The translations under genes were made by a program, and so were the position numbers. From Empedobacter falsenii (GTDB lineage Bacteria; Bacteroidota; Bacteroidia; Flavobacteriales; Weeksellaceae), in NCBI RefSeq assembly GCF_013488205.1, contig NZ_CP040908.1, positions 905,876 through 969,875 on the forward strand: a stretch of DNA of 64,000 nt. The letters run 5' to 3'. Position 1 is the stretch's first letter; the number at the start of each line of letters is the position of its first letter. The notes under the pieces are model-generated. The model ran no database searches. It saw only the letters and a program-made list of their open reading frames with translations, and had not been told where the DNA came from. This document shows, in pieces, positions 9,133 through 34,366 of the stretch.

Positions 9133-9702
9133 ATGGAACTTTTAAAAGAAAGAATTCTGAAGGATGGAAAAAGTTTCGATGGTGGCATTCTAAAAGTTGA
9201 TAGTTTTATCAACCACCAAATGGACCCTGTTCTGATGAAAGCAATAGCGTCGGAATTTGTCCAGCGATTTTCGGATTTAAACATTAATAAAATCATTACA
9301 ATCGAAGCGAGCGGAATTGCACCAGCGATTATGGTTGGATTAGAATTGAATTTGCCTGTTGTTTTTGTGAAAAAAGCTAAACCTAAAACAATGGCAGATT
9401 TTTATGCGTCGCAAGTATATTCATTCACGAAAGACCGAACGTACGATGTTTGCGTAAGTAGCCAATTTCTGAATGAAAATGATAATGTTATTTTTATTGA
9501 TGATTTTTTAGCGAACGGAAATGCAGCGTTGGGTGTTGAAGATTTGATAAAACAATCTGGCGCAAACCTTTTGGGAATGGGCTTTATAATTGAGAAATCA
9601 TTTCAAGAAGGTCGTGATCGTTTACTGAATGAAAACATCAGAGTTGAATCATTAGTAAGATTAAAATCTTTAGGAGACAACTCGATTATTTTTGAAGAAT
9701 AA
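9133..9702 (+). CDS. xpt: xanthine phosphoribosyltransferase
   Basis: 189 aa. PRTase fold with the PRPP-binding motif [10 protein letters not shown]; the N-terminus matches XPRT. Confidence 0.8.
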
Positions 9703-28176: not shown

Positions 28177-28208
28177 AAATGCCTGAACAATTGTTCAGGC
28201 ATTTTTTT
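28177..28208. terminator. bidirectional terminator shared by hemF and rtcB
   Basis: AAATGCCTGAACAA-TTGTTCAGGCATTT followed by a T-run. Confidence 0.75.
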
Positions 28209-29652
28209 AATCTTCTCTCGATCCGTCATCGGCCATTCTGACCATTTTAGGTGTAAAAGTAGCCACAACATCTACTAAATCTTGTTGCGCAGCCATTACT
28301 TCGTGAATATCTTTATATGCCATTGGCGCTTCATCCTTTCCACCACCAATTAATGTAATTCCAAAATAATTCAAATAATCGTTTATCTTATTTTGAGATA
28401 ATGATTTAATCGCTTGTGTTCGGCTCATTTGTCGACCAGCTCCATGCGAAGCAGAATGAATCGAATTTTCTTCACCTTTTCCTCGAACCAAAAATCCTGG
28501 CGCAGTCATAGAACCTGGAATAATTCCCATTATATCTTTAGAAGCTGGCGTTGCACCTTTTCGATGAACAATGACTTCTTCGCCATTGTAAATTTCTTTC
28601 CAAGCAAAATTATGATGATTTTCTACTTTCGCTAAAACTTCAGCACCAATTGATTTTGCAATTTTTTGATGAATAATTTCGTGACAAGCTGAAGCATATT
28701 CACCCGCCAAATTCATCGCAATCCAATATTCTTGACCTTCGGCTGAATCTAAATCTAAATAAGCCAAATTCTGTGCTTTGTACGGAAGTTTACAAATTTC
28801 TTTTGCAATTTTTGTATAATGTCCAGCGATTGTAGCGCCAAAACCTCTCGATCCAGAGTGCGTTAGCAAAGCCAAATATGAACCTTTTTTGATGTTCAGT
28901 TTTTCATCATCTTCCTTGAAATCAATCAAACCAAATTCTACAAAATGATTTCCTCCACCAGAAGAACCCAATTGCGACCACGCTTTATCTTTTAAATTTT
29001 GAATAAATGAATTCGTCTCGAATTTTGCATCATCTAAAATCTGATGTTCAGCTTTGTATTGACCATGAAAACCATGTCCTGCACCAAATTTTGTATTTTT
29101 GATCAAAGTTTCTTTTAATGAATCGTGATGTTCAAAATAATGAGAAGCAGGTAAATCATAAATCGATAAAGCCATTCTACATCCAATATCAACGCCGACA
29201 CCATAAGGAATAATCGCATTTTTGGTTGCTAAAACTCCGCCAATTGGTAATCCATAACCTTGATGCGCATCAGGCATAATTGCGCCAGCAACGGTAACAG
29301 GAAGTTTCATGGCGACTTTCATTTGTTCTAAAGCGCCGTCCTCAATTTTTTCCGCACCATAAATTTTGAAATCGGTTGGATTTTCATTCAATTCAATCAA
29401 GTTTTCATCTTGATTTGGTAAATGAATTCCATCGATAAAGCCTTTTGCAAGCGTTTTGAAAATTTTATCTTCTAAAAAATCTTGTGGCGAAGAAAAAACT
29501 TGCGCATATTTATCAAGCATTTCGGCTTTTGTGTAACCATTTCTTTTTTTGTTGATTTTTAAGGCAATTCCTAAAATTTCGTTTTCAGGATAACCCAAGG
29601 CAATCAAATCGTTTCCATTGATCGGTTTATTTTGTTGTTCAGTTGTTTTCAT
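28207..29652 (-). CDS. rtcB: RtcB family RNA 3'-phosphate/2',3'-cyclic-phosphate--5'-OH ligase (481-aa archaeal/eukaryal-length form)
   Basis: Motifs MPDAHQGYG, GSSGGGNHF, NHHNF and SASHGAGR (metal, GTP and His-GMP sites). Its start overlaps the upstream gene by 14 nt. Confidence 0.95.
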   Translation of the reverse strand: MKTTEQQNKPINGNDLIALGYPENEILGIALKINKKRNGYTKAEMLDKYAQVFSSPQDFLEDKIFKTLAKGFIDGIHLPNQDENLIELNENPTDFKIYGAEKIEDGALEQMKVAMKLPVTVAGAIMPDAHQGYGLPIGGVLATKNAIIPYGVGVDIGCRMALSIYDLPASHYFEHHDSLKETLIKNTKFGAGHGFHGQYKAEHQILDDAKFETNSFIQNLKDKAWSQLGSSGGGNHFVEFGLIDFKEDDEKLNIKKGSYLALLTHSGSRGFGATIAGHYTKIAKEICKLPYKAQNLAYLDLDSAEGQEYWIAMNLAGEYASACHEIIHQKIAKSIGAEVLAKVENHHNFAWKEIYNGEEVIVHRKGATPASKDIMGIIPGSMTAPGFLVRGKGEENSIHSASHGAGRQMSRTQAIKSLSQNKINDYLNYFGITLIGGGKDEAPMAYKDIHEVMAAQQDLVDVVATFTPKMVRMADDGSRED

Positions 29653-30706
29653 ATAATTTGGTTCTAAGGTTGATTAAAAATTCTTCCATTTTCGAAGAGT
29701 TTATTTCGGTTGGAAGAAAATTTAGTTTAGATTTTTCTTCAATTTCTCGTTGTAAATTTTCAGCTTTTTCGATTACTTCTTCATAAGAAAAATCTCCGTT
29801 TTTTATCGCTAATAATTCGTCACGATCTTCTGTTCGTTTTACATTTAGGTTTCCTGTTTCCACTAATTCTTTCGCAACTTTTAACAAACGAATCGTGTGC
29901 ATCATATTTTTACTATCGTAATTTTTTTCATGCGCAATGTTTGTTGTGTAACGATCTTCATTTCGCAATTTCATCCAATCCCAATATTCTTTGTATTGCT
30001 TGCAATAAGTGGAATATTCATCTTTTTGGAAAATGAAATAGGCAATTGGTTTTTCATTTTTAGGAATTTCACTCAAACGAATATCATCATTATTTTTATC
30101 TTTTACGATTCCTTTATAATTCGATTTTTCGTTGTAATAAAGCGCAAATAAATCTTTCGAATGATTGATTTTACTTAGTCCGCAAAACGCTTGTTTGTAA
30201 GAATTTGAATTCATCCAATCAACAAAAGAAATGGTTTTGTTATCATCAATAATATAACAAAAATCAAGAACGGTTTTTCTGATTTCATCTATTGGATTTA
30301 GAAATTTCTTGTTCAATCCTTTTGCTTTTTTGATTTGACTCAAGGCGTATCCAACAAATGTTTTCTCAACTTCTGATGTGATAAACTCTTTATAATTTAA
30401 TTCATCTAACAAAGGCGATTTATACAGAACAAATTCTTCTGGAGTTGCTAGGATTTCTAAACAACTCGGATTATTTTTCAATAATAATTCAATGAATCGA
30501 CCAATTTCATAATATACAATATCATTGGTTTCGTTGCTCACTTGCGTTTGATATTCGAAACCATAAAATTCATTTTTAGGTAAATAAAAAATGCCACGAA
30601 TATCAGTGTCTGAATTTTTAGTTGCCAAATTATAGGCTTTGCTTCCGCTTATACATTCAAATAGAATTAAATTTTGACTTTTTAGATCTTCTATTGTTAG
30701 TTTCAT
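29639..30706 (-). CDS. Pol-beta superfamily nucleotidyltransferase (long paralog, 355 aa)
   Basis: N-terminal GS-x(9)-DxD motif (ISGSKAYNLATKNSDTDIRG). ATGA overlap with the upstream gene. Confidence 0.7.
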   Translation of the reverse strand: MKLTIEDLKSQNLILFECISGSKAYNLATKNSDTDIRGIFYLPKNEFYGFEYQTQVSNETNDIVYYEIGRFIELLLKNNPSCLEILATPEEFVLYKSPLLDELNYKEFITSEVEKTFVGYALSQIKKAKGLNKKFLNPIDEIRKTVLDFCYIIDDNKTISFVDWMNSNSYKQAFCGLSKINHSKDLFALYYNEKSNYKGIVKDKNNDDIRLSEIPKNEKPIAYFIFQKDEYSTYCKQYKEYWDWMKLRNEDRYTTNIAHEKNYDSKNMMHTIRLLKVAKELVETGNLNVKRTEDRDELLAIKNGDFSYEEVIEKAENLQREIEEKSKLNFLPTEINSSKMEEFLINLRTKLYENN

Positions 30707-31458
30707 TTTGTTACGGTTTTAATGAAAAATACATTGATTTTGTTTTTATCAAATTCAATTTTTGGTAATTTTTCGGTTTCGATTTTTAATTCATTTTTCA
30801 AATTAATTAACCAATCGAAAAGTTCATCATTTTTCGAAATTCTAAAACTTTCATCAACATTTGCTTTGATTTCAAGATATTTATCCACTCGGTTTTCGAT
30901 TGTTTTATCTCCGATTAAATGTTTTAATTTTTCAAATTCCATCGGAGGAATTGTTTTATTTTCTACAATCCATTTCGCTGAAAGAACCGAACGTAAAGTA
31001 TAAAACAAACTTTTGAGTTTAATTTCGTTTTGATGTTCCATTTCAATCAATCGCTTTGTTGTAATTCCCAAATAATGCATGGTAACTTTTTGAGAATTGA
31101 ATTGTGAAGCAGCTAAATTGAACAATTCTTTTTCGAAAATTTCATCAGAAATATAATGAATCGGAGATTGTAAATATTCGTTAATACTCGAATTTGATTT
31201 CAACATTAAGCGCAAAACTTTTTGAATATCCCAACCTTTAAAATCCAGTTCATCTATAATTTCTAAATCAATAAAATCATCAATTGGGTCAATTTTTAGA
31301 TAATCTTCAATTTTTCGTTTGTAAATAAATCGAACATCGTAATCGCTGTCAGTAGAAGGGAAGCCCCAAGCGCGGCTCCCAGATTCTATAGCAAAAAGAA
31401 TTTTGACGTTATATTTATCTTCTATTTCTTTTAATTTATTTATAATGATTGGTTTCAT
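30703..31458 (-). CDS. Pol-beta superfamily nucleotidyltransferase (short paralog, 251 aa; Nuc-transf-like)
   Basis: GS-x(9)-DxD motif (ESGSRAWGFPSTDSDYDVRF). ATGA overlaps at both ends. Confidence 0.7.
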   Translation of the reverse strand: MKPIIINKLKEIEDKYNVKILFAIESGSRAWGFPSTDSDYDVRFIYKRKIEDYLKIDPIDDFIDLEIIDELDFKGWDIQKVLRLMLKSNSSINEYLQSPIHYISDEIFEKELFNLAASQFNSQKVTMHYLGITTKRLIEMEHQNEIKLKSLFYTLRSVLSAKWIVENKTIPPMEFEKLKHLIGDKTIENRVDKYLEIKANVDESFRISKNDELFDWLINLKNELKIETEKLPKIEFDKNKINVFFIKTVTK

Positions 31459-32546
31459 TTCGTAAACATTGTTTTTAGTTCATTTAACACATTCGATCCG
31501 CCAGAAATTGAGATTTCTCCCACTTTATCAGCAATTTTTTCGATGTATTCCATTTCTTTCAATTTCCATAACGTTTCGTTTTCTTCCATCAATTTCGCAG
31601 TGTTCAACAAGCTTCTTGTCGAAGCAGTTTCCTCACGACGCGTAATCGAATTGGCTTGAGCCGTTTTTTCGGCAATCAAAACGCGGTTCATAATTTCTCT
31701 TATTTCTCCTGGAAGAATAATGTCTTTCATACCTGCGTCAATCAATTTTAGACCAATTTCTTGGAATTGAGCTTGATATTTTTGAATGATATAATTCGTT
31801 ACCGAATTTTTATCCGACATCAAATCATCAAAATTCATGTTTCCAATAAATTCTCTCAAACCTAATTGAATCGCTTGATAAATCATTTTTTCGAAATCTT
31901 TGTTCGATTGATAAGCGTTTAACAAATCAGTAATTTGATAATTTACCATAAAATTGATTCGCAATTGCGCTTTATCTTTTGTCAAAATTTCTTGTCCCGA
32001 AATTTCAATTGTTTGCGGACGCATATCAAAAGAAACCATCGAAATTTTTGTTTCGTTGTTGTAAAATTGGTATTCACCAGCTTTTAAAACCGAATCAAAT
32101 TCATTGTCTTTGAATAAAATTCCTTCGAAATATGGCGCAACAGAAATGATACGAATAGCTCCAGCTTTTCTCAAAATATCAATTTCTCTTTTTGTTAAAT
32201 TTTTAATTTCTTCAGTAGAATTCAACTCAAATTTTACAGCTTTTAATTGAGTTGAATTTTTCCAAATCATCACGTTTTTATTGTAAAATGAATTATAGAT
32301 TTGATTGTTTTTACATATAATTAACACTTCATTGTGTAATACTTCGATAAAATCTACCATCGATTTCAAAGTTTCATTTTCTAAAAACATTGTGTGGTAT
32401 TTTTCATCAATTATTTCGTTGATGTTTAATTTTTCGATGTTTTTATTGAATAAAATCCAATAGTTTCCTTTTGTGTAAACTTTTTCGATTTCGTTGTTTT
32501 TGATATAGATTCCAATTTCTTGGTTGTTAATTGCTAATTTTTTCAT
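31455..32546 (-). CDS. SPFH/band-7 (stomatin-like) domain protein, first gene of the rtcB operon
   Basis: SPFH-like core (QLRINFMVNYQITD ... AEKTAQANSITRREETAS) and a C-terminal coiled region. No TM helix is evident. Confidence 0.55.
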   Translation of the reverse strand: MKKLAINNQEIGIYIKNNEIEKVYTKGNYWILFNKNIEKLNINEIIDEKYHTMFLENETLKSMVDFIEVLHNEVLIICKNNQIYNSFYNKNVMIWKNSTQLKAVKFELNSTEEIKNLTKREIDILRKAGAIRIISVAPYFEGILFKDNEFDSVLKAGEYQFYNNETKISMVSFDMRPQTIEISGQEILTKDKAQLRINFMVNYQITDLLNAYQSNKDFEKMIYQAIQLGLREFIGNMNFDDLMSDKNSVTNYIIQKYQAQFQEIGLKLIDAGMKDIILPGEIREIMNRVLIAEKTAQANSITRREETASTRSLLNTAKLMEENETLWKLKEMEYIEKIADKVGEISISGGSNVLNELKTMFTK

Positions 32547-32867
32547 TTTATTATTTTTTTATAGGTTTTTACTATTTTATATTTCTCCTTTGTCGAAGAA
32601 TCTTTTTCTTAAAATTTTAATTAAAAAAGCTAAATCATTTTCCTTTTTCAAAACGGAATTTGAAGTTTGAGCAGCTTATTTTGATTTCTTGTTTTAATCA
32701 TTTCTTTCAAATCATTTTGACTTGATATTTTAGTTTAAACTTTAAATCAATCATCAACTAAAGTTTCAAATTCAGGTTTTAAACAAGTTTTTGATCTTAT
32801 TTCCAATTCATTTCTATGAAATAAACTCTCTATTCGAAAAGAAAACTTTTTAGCTTTTTTGTTTCCA

Positions 32868-33090
32868 ATGGTACCCTTTCGGGCGATAAAAACAGATTAA
32901 AAGTCTGATTTTAATGATTACTCTACCAACTGAGTTATTTCAGTTTCCTGAAAGTAGGAATCGAACCTACGACCCATCATTAATGATTGCTATACCGCTC
33001 AGCTATTTCAACCTCAGTTGAAAATGGGATTCGAACCCATGTGCATCATTGGGATTTTAATTATTCAGAATAGAAGTGATGAAACATTTT
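32868..33090 (-). ncRNA. candidate Y-RNA-like (YrlA-type) ncRNA carrying two tandem circularly permuted tRNA-like modules, upstream of the rtcB operon
   Basis: Minus-strand order in each module is T-arm, acceptor 3' strand, tetraloop, acceptor 5' strand, TA, D-arm, all closed by an AATGAT/ATCATT stem. T-loops are TTCGAAT and TTCGATT; D-loops contain GG. The 3' flank has a GCCC-GAAA-GGGT hairpin and ends in ACCA. Confidence 0.6.
32913..33050 (-). repeat. two tandem 69-nt units (32913-32981 and 32982-33050) forming the tRNA-like modules
   Basis: The units align end to end and show compensatory stem changes: TTTCAG/CTGAAA versus TTTCAAC/GTTGAAA, GTAGG/CCTAC versus ATGGG/CCCAT, ACTC/GAGT versus GCT/AGC. 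Confidence 0.7.
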
Positions 33091-33346
33091 CTACTACAAT
33101 GCTATACTGAAACATTTGTCAAGGAACAATTAAAATCGTTTGGTTGTTAAACCTTTGACAAAGTTGGAGTAGAAGTGTGCGAATGAATTGCGCAATAAAA
33201 TATTTTTTCAAAATAATTTATAAACTATTATGAATAGAGGGTTTTGTATTGAAAATATTTTGAATAAAAGTTGAAATAAAAATTTCTACGCAAATAGATT
33301 GCGTACTTTGATTTGAAATTTGTAGTATTGAACAAAGAAATCAACC

Positions 33347-34366
33347 ATGGCAACCAATAAAATTGCATTAATACGTTATCAAACGATCGATAAATGTCTT
33401 CAAAATCATTTTAGAAAATGGACATTAGAAGATTTGATAGAAAAAGTTTCGGAAGCATTGTATGAATATGAAGGAATAACTTCTGGTGTTTCGAAACGTA
33501 CAATTCAGGGCGATATACAAGTGATGCGCAGTGATAAATTGGGTTATAATGCGCCAATTGTTGTTCGAGAAAAAAAGTTTTATGAATACGAAGATCGTGA
33601 TTATTCGATTCATAATTCGCCTGTTTCGTCTGCTGATTTAGACAAAATGAAAGAAGTGATTTCGGTGATGAAACAATTGAATGGTTTTAATTATTTTGAT
33701 GATATGAACGAGATTATTACGCGTCTCGAAAATAATTTATCCAAACAAACTCATCAACAACCAAATTATATTCAGTTTGAGGAAAATCCTTTATTAAAAG
33801 GTTTGGAGCATTTGAATCGGTTGTATCAAGCAATTGTGAAGAAGCAACCTTTGTTGATTTCGTATCAATCATTCAAGGCAAAAAATCAAGAGCCAAAACA
33901 ACAAGTTTATTATCCGTATTTGTTGAAAGAATATCGTAATCGTTGGTTTTTATTGGCAAAATCGAGAAAAGATAAAAATTTGTATACGTTGGCTTTGGAC
34001 AGAATAGTTGAATTTTATGAGTTGGCAAATGAACCTTTTGTGGATGAGCAAGAGATTAATTTTGATACGTATTACAACAATGCGATTGGTGTAACGAAAA
34101 GTGTGAAAGAAAGAGAGCAACGTGTTGTTTTTCGTGTGAATAAAAAATTGGCGCCTTATGTGGTGACAAAACCAATTCATGCGACGCAAAAAGTATTGGA
34201 AGTGACGGATGAAGGAACTTTATTTTCGATAGAAGTTGTACATAATTTTGAGTTGGAACGAGAGCTTTTAGGATTTGGAGAAGAAATAGAAGTTCTTGCG
34301 CCGAGATTAGTGAAAAAAAGAATTAAAACACGATTAGAAAAAGCATTAGAAAAATATAAAAAATAG
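33347..34366 (+). CDS. HTH plus WYL-domain transcriptional regulator, divergent from the rtcB operon
   Basis: N-terminal wHTH followed by a WYL motif region (YYPYLLKEYRNRWFLLAKSR ... YTLALDRIV) and a C-terminal WCX-like extension. 339 aa. Confidence 0.8.
   Translation: MATNKIALIRYQTIDKCLQNHFRKWTLEDLIEKVSEALYEYEGITSGVSKRTIQGDIQVMRSDKLGYNAPIVVREKKFYEYEDRDYSIHNSPVSSADLDKMKEVISVMKQLNGFNYFDDMNEIITRLENNLSKQTHQQPNYIQFEENPLLKGLEHLNRLYQAIVKKQPLLISYQSFKAKNQEPKQQVYYPYLLKEYRNRWFLLAKSRKDKNLYTLALDRIVEFYELANEPFVDEQEINFDTYYNNAIGVTKSVKEREQRVVFRVNKKLAPYVVTKPIHATQKVLEVTDEGTLFSIEVVHNFELERELLGFGEEIEVLAPRLVKKRIKTRLEKALEKYKK

Follow-up and report, generated by a model that had tools for sequence, protein, structure and literature searches.

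In Salmonella and Escherichia coli the operon of the RNA ligase RtcB is governed by RtcR, an activator composed of a CARF domain, a sigma54 AAA+ domain and a helix-turn-helix (HTH), which is encoded divergently beside the operon and whose sensor belongs to a class of ligand-binding domains for which nucleic-acid fragments have been predicted as the signal (PMC7790460, PMC4012209). The operon can include Ro60 and tRNA-like RNAs of the YrlA type, as in the rsr-yrlBA-rtcBA arrangement of Salmonella. We have analyzed a stretch of 64,000 nucleotides (hereafter the window) from the genome of Empedobacter falsenii, a member of the Weeksellaceae (Flavobacteriales) in the phylum Bacteroidota (contig NZ_CP040908.1, positions 905,876 to 969,875), in which a gene at 33347–34366 on the plus strand codes for a regulator with a WYL domain and faces a minus-strand unit made up of a tRNA-like RNA and the genes for a Band-7 protein, RlaP, an RlaP-like protein and RtcB. 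An earlier note, made from the sequence alone, had described this layout and likened it to that of Salmonella, with an HTH-WYL protein instead of the CARF-sigma54 activator, and our results bear out the description. RtcR is non-homologous to this regulator, which has neither CARF nor AAA+ (Pfam gives WYL and WCX and nothing else), nor a sigma54 promoter; although outside the RtcR family, it sits in the place of RtcR and, judged by sequence and gene order, appears to be its counterpart in Bacteroidota. The operon of the window, as searched with Pfam, contains neither RtcA nor Ro60 (Rsr/TROVE), both part of the Salmonella locus, and has Band-7 and two RlaP genes instead. The likeness does extend to Ro60 in a Flavobacterium locus (L029), where an orthologue with 61% identity faces Ro60/TROVE, two YrlA-like RNAs and RtcB.

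Several regulators in which a winged HTH (wHTH) is followed by WYL and WCX domains have been described. DriD of Caulobacter crescentus (PDB 8tp8, 7tzv, 9pfq) is a homodimer on a 20-bp palindrome, and in the promoters that it activates, those of its own gene and recA included, the palindrome lies over the position of the absent -35 element, always equally far from the -10 (PMC13004042, PMC9186387). PafBC, the actinobacterial activator of the DNA-damage response, likewise acts at promoters lacking a -35 element, from a site near the -10, and has recA in its regulon, but it is a heterodimer or a two-module fusion in which only one wHTH binds, and its motif is non-palindromic. CapW and BrxR are repressors of the phage-defence systems CBASS and BREX; they recognise palindromes of about 20 bp in divergent or bidirectional promoters and regulate their own genes. 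The characterised WYL factors bind single-stranded DNA (ssDNA), as do DriD, PafBC and the WYL domain of CapW (PMC11662680), or cyclic di-GMP. Aravind and colleagues have also suggested that RNA-repair pathways are under the control of WYL and CARF factors, which would recognise RNAs ending in a cyclic phosphate (PMC9503650, citing Burroughs & Aravind 2016). That comparative-genomic prediction is the same as ours, and the general idea of WYL factors regulating RNA repair is already known from computational work. Our literature searches found no description of the operator or the regulon, and no experiments on this family, on control of rtcB by a WYL factor or on a WYL regulator from Bacteroidota. 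To this our sequence comparison adds a predicted operator of defined sequence, the layout of its promoters and a candidate regulon that extends across the phylum and reaches into DNA repair. As to how repair of the RtcB type is switched outside Proteobacteria, RtcR, the CARF/sigma54 activator, is to our knowledge the only regulator that has been studied, and this locus offers a testable alternative for a whole phylum, the Bacteroidales of the human gut included.

The WYL regulator and its relatives

The regulator gene is an open reading frame (ORF) of 339 codons starting with ATG. Pfam recognised a WYL domain (PF13280) at residues 154–222 (E 3.7e-11; 43.3 bits, cutoff 21.8) and a WCX domain (PF25583) at residues 258–334 (E 5.5e-13; 49.5 bits, cutoff 23.9). 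No HTH profile among the Pfam and NCBIfam models matched the N-terminus. However, the AlphaFold2 model, computed with 45 homologues as input (mean predicted local distance difference test score, pLDDT, 80.8), shows a winged helix of three helices and a beta-wing at residues 5–81 (pLDDT about 80–89), and because the predicted structure has this fold where the profiles gave nothing we count the regulator as having an N-terminal wHTH. In the model the modules follow one another as wHTH (about 1–92), three-helix linker (about 95–164), WYL (154–225) and WCX (258–334).

A Foldseek search with the full chain retrieved regulators of the same wHTH-WYL-WCX type, DriD at the top (8tp8, E 3.5e-14) and then PafBC, BrxR and CapW, in alignments of about 350 columns that spanned the wHTH of DriD, BrxR and CapW. 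The full-length E values were between 1e-14 and 1e-10 for DriD and PafBC, compared with 4e-8 to 4e-6 for BrxR and CapW. A profile search separated them in the same way (1e-6 against 1.7e-3), DriD being the best match by sequence too. Identity to DriD is nonetheless only about 16–21%, the operator sequences are unrelated, the regulon of DriD is a DNA-damage response and not RNA repair, and driD has not been described as adjoining its targets. Besides their lower fold scores, CapW and BrxR differ in their shorter chains (about 266–290 residues) and in their phage-defence targets, none of which adjoins the regulator here: PADLOC assigned the regulator to generic WYL models only, found no match for the four operon proteins and reported no adjoining defence system.

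Counterparts in Empedobacter sedimenti, E. tilapiae and E. falsenii are 98–99% identical to the regulator. Among orthologues of 41–83% identity the best conserved part is the recognition-helix region, VS(K/R)RT.Q.D...MRSD.LGYNAPI, and the RNRWFL motif of the WYL domain is largely kept, with N198, R199, W200 and F201 invariant in 12 orthologues. Some of the related genes have an unusual structure. In Faecalibacter macacae (L011:8001-9004) frame 1 of the gene has 13 stop codons and a tblastn alignment in a single frame covers residues 1–245 only, so that it is probably frameshifted or a pseudogene, with Band-7 and RtcB intact beside it. At L014:8001-9722, and likely also in Psychroserpens (L017), the regulator ORF runs without a stop into a C-terminal domain of 239 residues of the PhyH type of 2-oxoglutarate (2OG)-Fe(II) dioxygenases (573 residues in all in L014; Pfam PhyH, E 7.3e-11). 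Here a WYL factor may genuinely be fused to an oxygenase, or else a stop codon was missed.

A conserved palindrome, its predicted promoters and its candidate regulon

We inspected 30 genome loci containing the regulator, of which two were cut at the regulator itself. The 28 evaluable ones come from six classes of Bacteroidota, with regulators of 41–99% identity and differing gene content and order. The earlier note had made its proposal depend on synteny with rtcB, and this was found throughout: RNA-repair genes were located at no more than 8 kb from the regulator in all 28 loci, and RtcB itself in 26. The set of repair genes varied from RtcB alone to Band-7 with RtcB, Band-7 with two RlaP genes and RtcB, Ro60 with the two YrlA-like RNAs and RtcB (L029), and a protein of 741 residues followed by two RlaP genes and RtcB, in some cases with an S24 peptidase after the first gene or with a T4-type RNA ligase in the place of RtcB. 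The link between regulator and repair genes has therefore been held through many rearrangements, indicating a functional tie.

When the 360 nucleotides preceding the regulator gene were aligned for 12 loci of Weeksellaceae, a pair of conserved boxes emerged from otherwise variable AT-rich DNA. Box A (33287–33305) is a perfect 19-bp palindrome, TACGCAA-ATAGA-TTGCGTA, the only match without mismatches in the window, and is the predicted operator in the regulator's own promoter. Box B (33176–33194; TGCGCAA-TTCAT-TCGCACA on the minus strand) is an imperfect palindrome recognised in the alignment of loci, its register being set against L012, and is the predicted operator of the RNA-repair unit; the equivalent sequence, at about -170, scores higher in L012, L026 and L030. 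Each palindrome is followed after 9 nucleotides by a predicted -7 box of the form nAnnTTTG, one facing the regulator gene (GAAATTTG, 33315–33322, plus strand) and the other facing the operon that begins with the tRNA-like RNA and continues with Band-7, RlaP and RtcB (CAACTTTG, 33159–33166, minus strand). In both cases the G of the box lies 17 nucleotides after the palindrome. Transcription would be expected to begin near 33327 (plus strand) and 33154 (minus strand). The first box is kept in the Weeksellaceae relatives, as are the TTTG core and the 17-nucleotide spacing of the second in close relatives. Candidate promoter elements on both strands within 33090–33346, as named in the earlier note, and the conserved inverted repeat that it proposed to search for are thus both present. 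The start-to-start distance between the two boxes is 111 bp in the window and 109–113 bp in L006, L008, L012, L026, L028 and L030, about ten and a half helical turns, which may reflect back-to-back promoters or else cooperative binding or looping. Within the window the regulator and the RNA-repair unit are the sole targets carrying the operator; near-matches with one mismatch at 9559 and 17836 were dismissed as chance, the latter being inside an ORF and neither having a -7 box.

The palindrome, with the consensus TRCGCAA-N5-TTGCGYA (19 bp), adjoins the regulator gene in most orthologous loci and is kept where the regulator has diverged to 41% identity. It is found about 59 nucleotides upstream of the regulator ATG in loci of Weeksellaceae, Flavobacteriaceae, Saprospiraceae, Chitinophagaceae and Barnesiella, including those whose regulators are 41–52% (Flavobacteriaceae, Saprospiraceae, Barnesiella) or 61–63% identical (Chitinophagaceae). 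The exceptions are a Sphingobacteriia locus (L027), where it is at -81, and L029, with a weak match only, at -192. The core CGCAA-N5-TTGCG, allowing up to one mismatch, occurred 49 times in 521 kb and only 2–11 times (mean about 6) in shuffled sequences. The half-sites are kept in sequence while the five nucleotides between them vary, indicating a protein site and not an RNA hairpin, and their conservation parallels that of the near-invariant recognition-helix region of the regulator. In seven loci (L013–L015, L017, L018, L021 and L028) the repair genes are 2–6 kb away from the regulator, and there extra copies of the palindrome appear; wherever the neighbouring genes were identified, these copies immediately precede either RtcB or the tRNA-like/Band-7 unit. 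In Barnesiella (L025) there is a copy between the stop codon of the regulator and RtcB.

Besides the -7 box, promoters of Bacteroidota usually have a TTTG near -33. The -7 box of their sigma-A promoters is TAnnTTTG, located at -12 to -5 (PMC9723704). With sites picked out by the palindrome and no other feature, the distance between the operator end and the G of nAnnTTTG was 17 nucleotides at most sites and 18 in Chitinophagaceae and in L022, and this narrow range applied to non-orthologous promoters, namely those of RtcB, of the tRNA-like/Band-7 unit, of the 741-residue protein gene and of the regulator gene of Weeksellaceae. The operator would span about -40 to -22 of these promoters, counted from predicted start sites, and at none of the operator-bearing promoters was there a TTTG at -33. 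As at DriD promoters, the predicted site overlaps the place where a -35-type element is missing and keeps a set spacing to the -10-type one, and the system could show whether an activation geometry of the DriD style works with the unusual sigma-A promoter of Bacteroidota. A scan with the sigma-70 consensus, a model that does not apply to Bacteroidota promoters, showed no enrichment (10 sites against 10.1 expected).

Metagenome contigs were also searched for the operator plus -7 box pattern, using no protein information. At least 120 stretches were returned, and the counts that follow refer to the 120 matches listed and the 125 motif occurrences in them. Homologues of WYL, RtcB, RlaP, Ro60 or the 741-residue protein were carried by 81 of the 120, and a WYL gene was present in 63. 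The first ORF downstream of the motif coded for RtcB in 45 occurrences, WYL in 14, the 741-residue protein in 7, Ro60 in 2 and RlaP in 2, while in 14 the contig ended before any ORF. Out of the remaining 41 first ORFs we scanned 20 against Pfam, which identified, among others, T4-type RNA ligase (2), Hen1 (1), RecA (2) and PIF1-like helicase (2), together with a GyrB/ParE-like protein, a DUF3127 protein and one divergent WYL protein. The operator and -7 box precede recA in two diverged contigs in which the operator is conserved, PIF1-like helicase genes in two and the GyrB/ParE-like gene in one (L087:~215-250, L126:~564-599, L064:1935-1970, L084:216-251 and L076:1488-1523). Because of these sites the predicted regulon seems to take in DNA-repair genes in some Bacteroidota, and the presence of the operator at the regulator gene and, in some contigs, at recA recalls the targets of DriD.

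Mode of regulation and the signal sensed

It is very probable that the regulator acts on the RtcB unit by way of the palindromes. For the way in which it does so we prefer a reading along the lines of DriD, to which we assign as a whole a probability of about 0.5. A dimeric wHTH-WYL-WCX factor, spread over the Bacteroidota, would recognise TRCGCAA-N5-TTGCGYA with its winged helices and occupy Box A at about -40 to -22 of its own promoter and the weaker Box B at the same positions of the divergent one, so setting both its own level and that of the RNA-repair unit. By analogy with DriD, PafBC and CapW, its WYL/WCX sensor would most likely bind short single-stranded nucleic-acid fragments arising from damage, which could be ssDNA or else RNA, the latter perhaps ending in a 2',3'-cyclic phosphate; the ligand would switch the factor's ability to bind DNA or to recruit RNA polymerase. 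The ligand-bound factor would then stand in for the missing -33 element at its fixed distance from the -7 box and activate transcription; acting through the stronger Box A, it would also raise its own expression. As regards the sign of regulation, we lean somewhat towards ligand-dependent activation rather than de-repression, because of the fixed spacing resembling that of DriD, the absence of the -33 element and the closer kinship to DriD and PafBC in both fold and sequence. The promoter geometry recalls the activator DriD no less than the repressors CapW and BrxR.

The same factor, operators and regulon would also fit a repressor of the CapW/BrxR type, which is what the earlier note had in mind when it spoke of de-repression. 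In that case the ligand-free dimer would block the -33 region and keep both the regulator and the repair operon low until a ligand, on binding to the WYL domain, frees it from the DNA. Several observations agree with this, and some of them also weigh against activation. A dimer bound over the positions that the operator covers could exclude RNA polymerase. CapW, a repressor, is likewise encoded opposite its target, with a bidirectional promoter region shared by the two and a site for autoregulation (PMC11662680). The -7 boxes of the targets are near the consensus and, with the A/T-rich tracts upstream, suggest promoters that may be intrinsically active and in need of repression, and BrxR and CapW are themselves significant fold matches. 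The layout and the -7 boxes together suit a repressor like CapW nearly as well as an activator. The DriD-like reading has other weak points: Box B has a perfect distal half-site but two mismatches in the promoter-proximal half; in Flavobacteriaceae, Saprospiraceae and Barnesiella the good -7 box of the site beside the regulator is on the other strand, which makes autoregulation less clear in these groups; only the 30 genome loci are unbiased for spacing, since the search pattern fixed the spacing in the metagenome matches and made that part of the argument partly circular; and it is from sequence co-occurrence that we infer binding of the regulator to the palindrome. Against a repressor, simple occlusion does not require a rigid spacing of 17–18 nucleotides at non-orthologous promoters, the activators DriD and PafBC are clearly nearer than BrxR and CapW, and PADLOC reported no defence system alongside. 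Repression therefore seems to us the less probable of the two modes, with a chance of little more than one third. Very improbable, by comparison, is that another factor binds the palindrome, or that an RNA hairpin or a terminator is formed there, and that the WYL protein regulates unrelated genes and adjoins rtcB merely by inheritance. Box A was indeed flagged as terminator-like on both strands (7-bp stem and T-run), and many of the loci are phylogenetically related so that the synteny counts are not independent. But no gene reads into Box A from either direction, the spacer is free, and the half-sites are kept from Weeksellaceae to Barnesiella in sequence and not through compensatory change, for which reasons we rejected the terminator. 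The site moreover stays with the WYL gene while sets as different as RtcB alone, Band-7 with RtcB, Ro60 with Y RNA and RtcB, or the 741-residue protein with two RlaP genes interchange, and the WYL gene reappeared in the metagenome scan that started from the motif.

The nature of the signal is a separate matter. The factor could be primarily a sensor of DNA damage, through ssDNA as in PafBC and DriD, with RtcB repair as one branch of a general nucleic-acid-damage regulon. The canonical operator geometry ahead of recA, PIF1-like helicase and GyrB/ParE-like genes in some lineages speaks for it. So do the structurally characterised relatives, which all bind ssDNA; DriD prefers it to single-stranded RNA, and CapW did not bind poly-U RNA (PMC11662680 for CapW). 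Genes for a LexA-like S24 peptidase and an RNase_T exonuclease in related operons point the same way. On the other hand, direct targets among the matches listed were RtcB in 45 cases and RecA and PIF1 in 2 each, RNA-repair genes dominate the regulon, and the operators of the window serve the RNA-repair unit and the regulator only. Furthermore, Tyr240 and Arg288 of DriD, which lie near the sugar of the ligand and are said to clash with the 2'-OH of RNA, correspond to Thr250, a threonine in 11 of the 12 orthologues and a serine in the other, and to Phe301, a phenylalanine in 10 of the 12, in an alignment that is only moderately reliable at such low overall identity. We consider a primarily ssDNA-sensing factor rather unlikely. 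Equally tentative is the broadest view of the data, in which this family would stand as master regulator over a nucleic-acid-damage regulon common to the Bacteroidota, sensing RNA fragments with its WYL domain as a non-homologous replacement of RtcR. If it were true, a single 19-bp operator would join RtcB, T4-type RNA ligase, Hen1, Ro60/Y RNA, RlaP, Band-7 and the 741-residue protein with RecA and PIF1 helicase, and this would be the first RNA-sensing WYL transcription factor. The ligands demonstrated for WYL domains are ssDNA and cyclic di-GMP, and the system could show whether these domains read RNA damage.

The RNA-repair unit and its tRNA-like RNA

The coding part of the divergent unit begins with the gene of a Band-7/SPFH protein (31455–32546, minus strand, as for all four genes; Pfam Band_7, E 2.9e-24). 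It is followed by those of an RlaP nucleotidyltransferase of the RNA-ligase-associated Pol-beta family (30703–31458; Pfam RlaP, E 6.1e-68), of a second, divergent RlaP-like nucleotidyltransferase (29639–30706; Pfam RlaP, E 7.7e-22, in the N-terminal half only) and, as last gene, of the RtcB RNA ligase (28207–29652; PF01139, E 7.7e-84). RlaP enzymes add one or two nucleotides to the 3' ends of damaged RNA (PMC12776372). Starts and stops of consecutive genes overlap by 4, 4 and 14 nucleotides in turn, and the four genes are probably translationally coupled and driven, together with the tRNA-like RNA, by the predicted divergent promoter.

The non-coding RNA ahead of Band-7 resembles Y RNAs and tRNAs (32850–33156, minus strand; both ends are predicted). 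It consists of a 5' hairpin and two tRNA-like modules in which the elements are permuted to T-arm, acceptor-like hairpin and D-arm, as in the YrlA alignment. Rfam gave a tRNA match at 32946–33012 on the minus strand (43.2 bits, gathering score 29) with a truncated anticodon loop, and a partial match to YrlA (Y RNA-like) at 32915–32978 on the same strand (36.1 bits) that is under the gathering score of 69. The z-score of the fold energy was -2.9, and a structured RNA with one or two modules is kept across genera within the region of about 600 nucleotides upstream of Band-7. ARAGORN called an aberrant 'tRNA-Pyl' at 33016–33100 (minus strand); as its calls for the same element differ among related loci (Asn, Pyl or none) we excluded them as evidence.

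The number of modules differs among close relatives. An extra module of about 75 nucleotides (32967–33041, minus strand) distinguishes the window and E. falsenii from E. sedimenti and E. brevis, which lack it (compared: L001, L003, L005, L006 and L008), and L006 and L008 have an additional one at a different place than in the window. Between the modules and Band-7, about 220 nucleotides of conserved non-coding sequence are bracketed by two complementary conserved stretches of the minus strand, AAAAAGCUAA (about 32851–32860) and UUAGCUUUUUU (about 32623–32633), which could form a long-range helix or be part of a second structured RNA or a terminator. In the Flavobacteriaceae loci L015:5157-5323 and L013:1924-2006 (both minus strand) ARAGORN called seemingly normal tRNA-Tyr(GTA) and tRNA-Pro(TGG) just downstream of an operator and upstream of Band-7; they may be real tRNAs or decoys.

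Other loci show further variation of the unit. In E. brevis MIP2405 (L004:7032-9011) RtcB is cut to 326 aligned residues and abuts the start of the regulator, while Band-7, both RlaP genes, the tRNA-like RNA and both operators are gone, an apparent natural deletion of about 5 kb across the regulated unit. A DUF434/DUF5616 protein adjoins RtcB in several loci (L014:922-1632, minus strand; L072 and L082). The repair operons of Chitinophagaceae contain the small S24 (LexA/UmuD-like) peptidase (L028:2359-3230 and L030:4903-5247), and L028 has the RNase_T-family exonuclease as well. One Pfam scan gave no significant domain for the conserved protein of about 741–744 residues (L026:5492-7717, L028:5227-7461 and L030:5302-7533), only Prok-RING_4 below threshold (E 0.005). 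It is present in 18 of the 120 metagenome matches listed, and in many loci its gene comes first after the operator, ahead of the S24 peptidase, the two RlaP genes and either RtcB or the T4-type RNA ligase.

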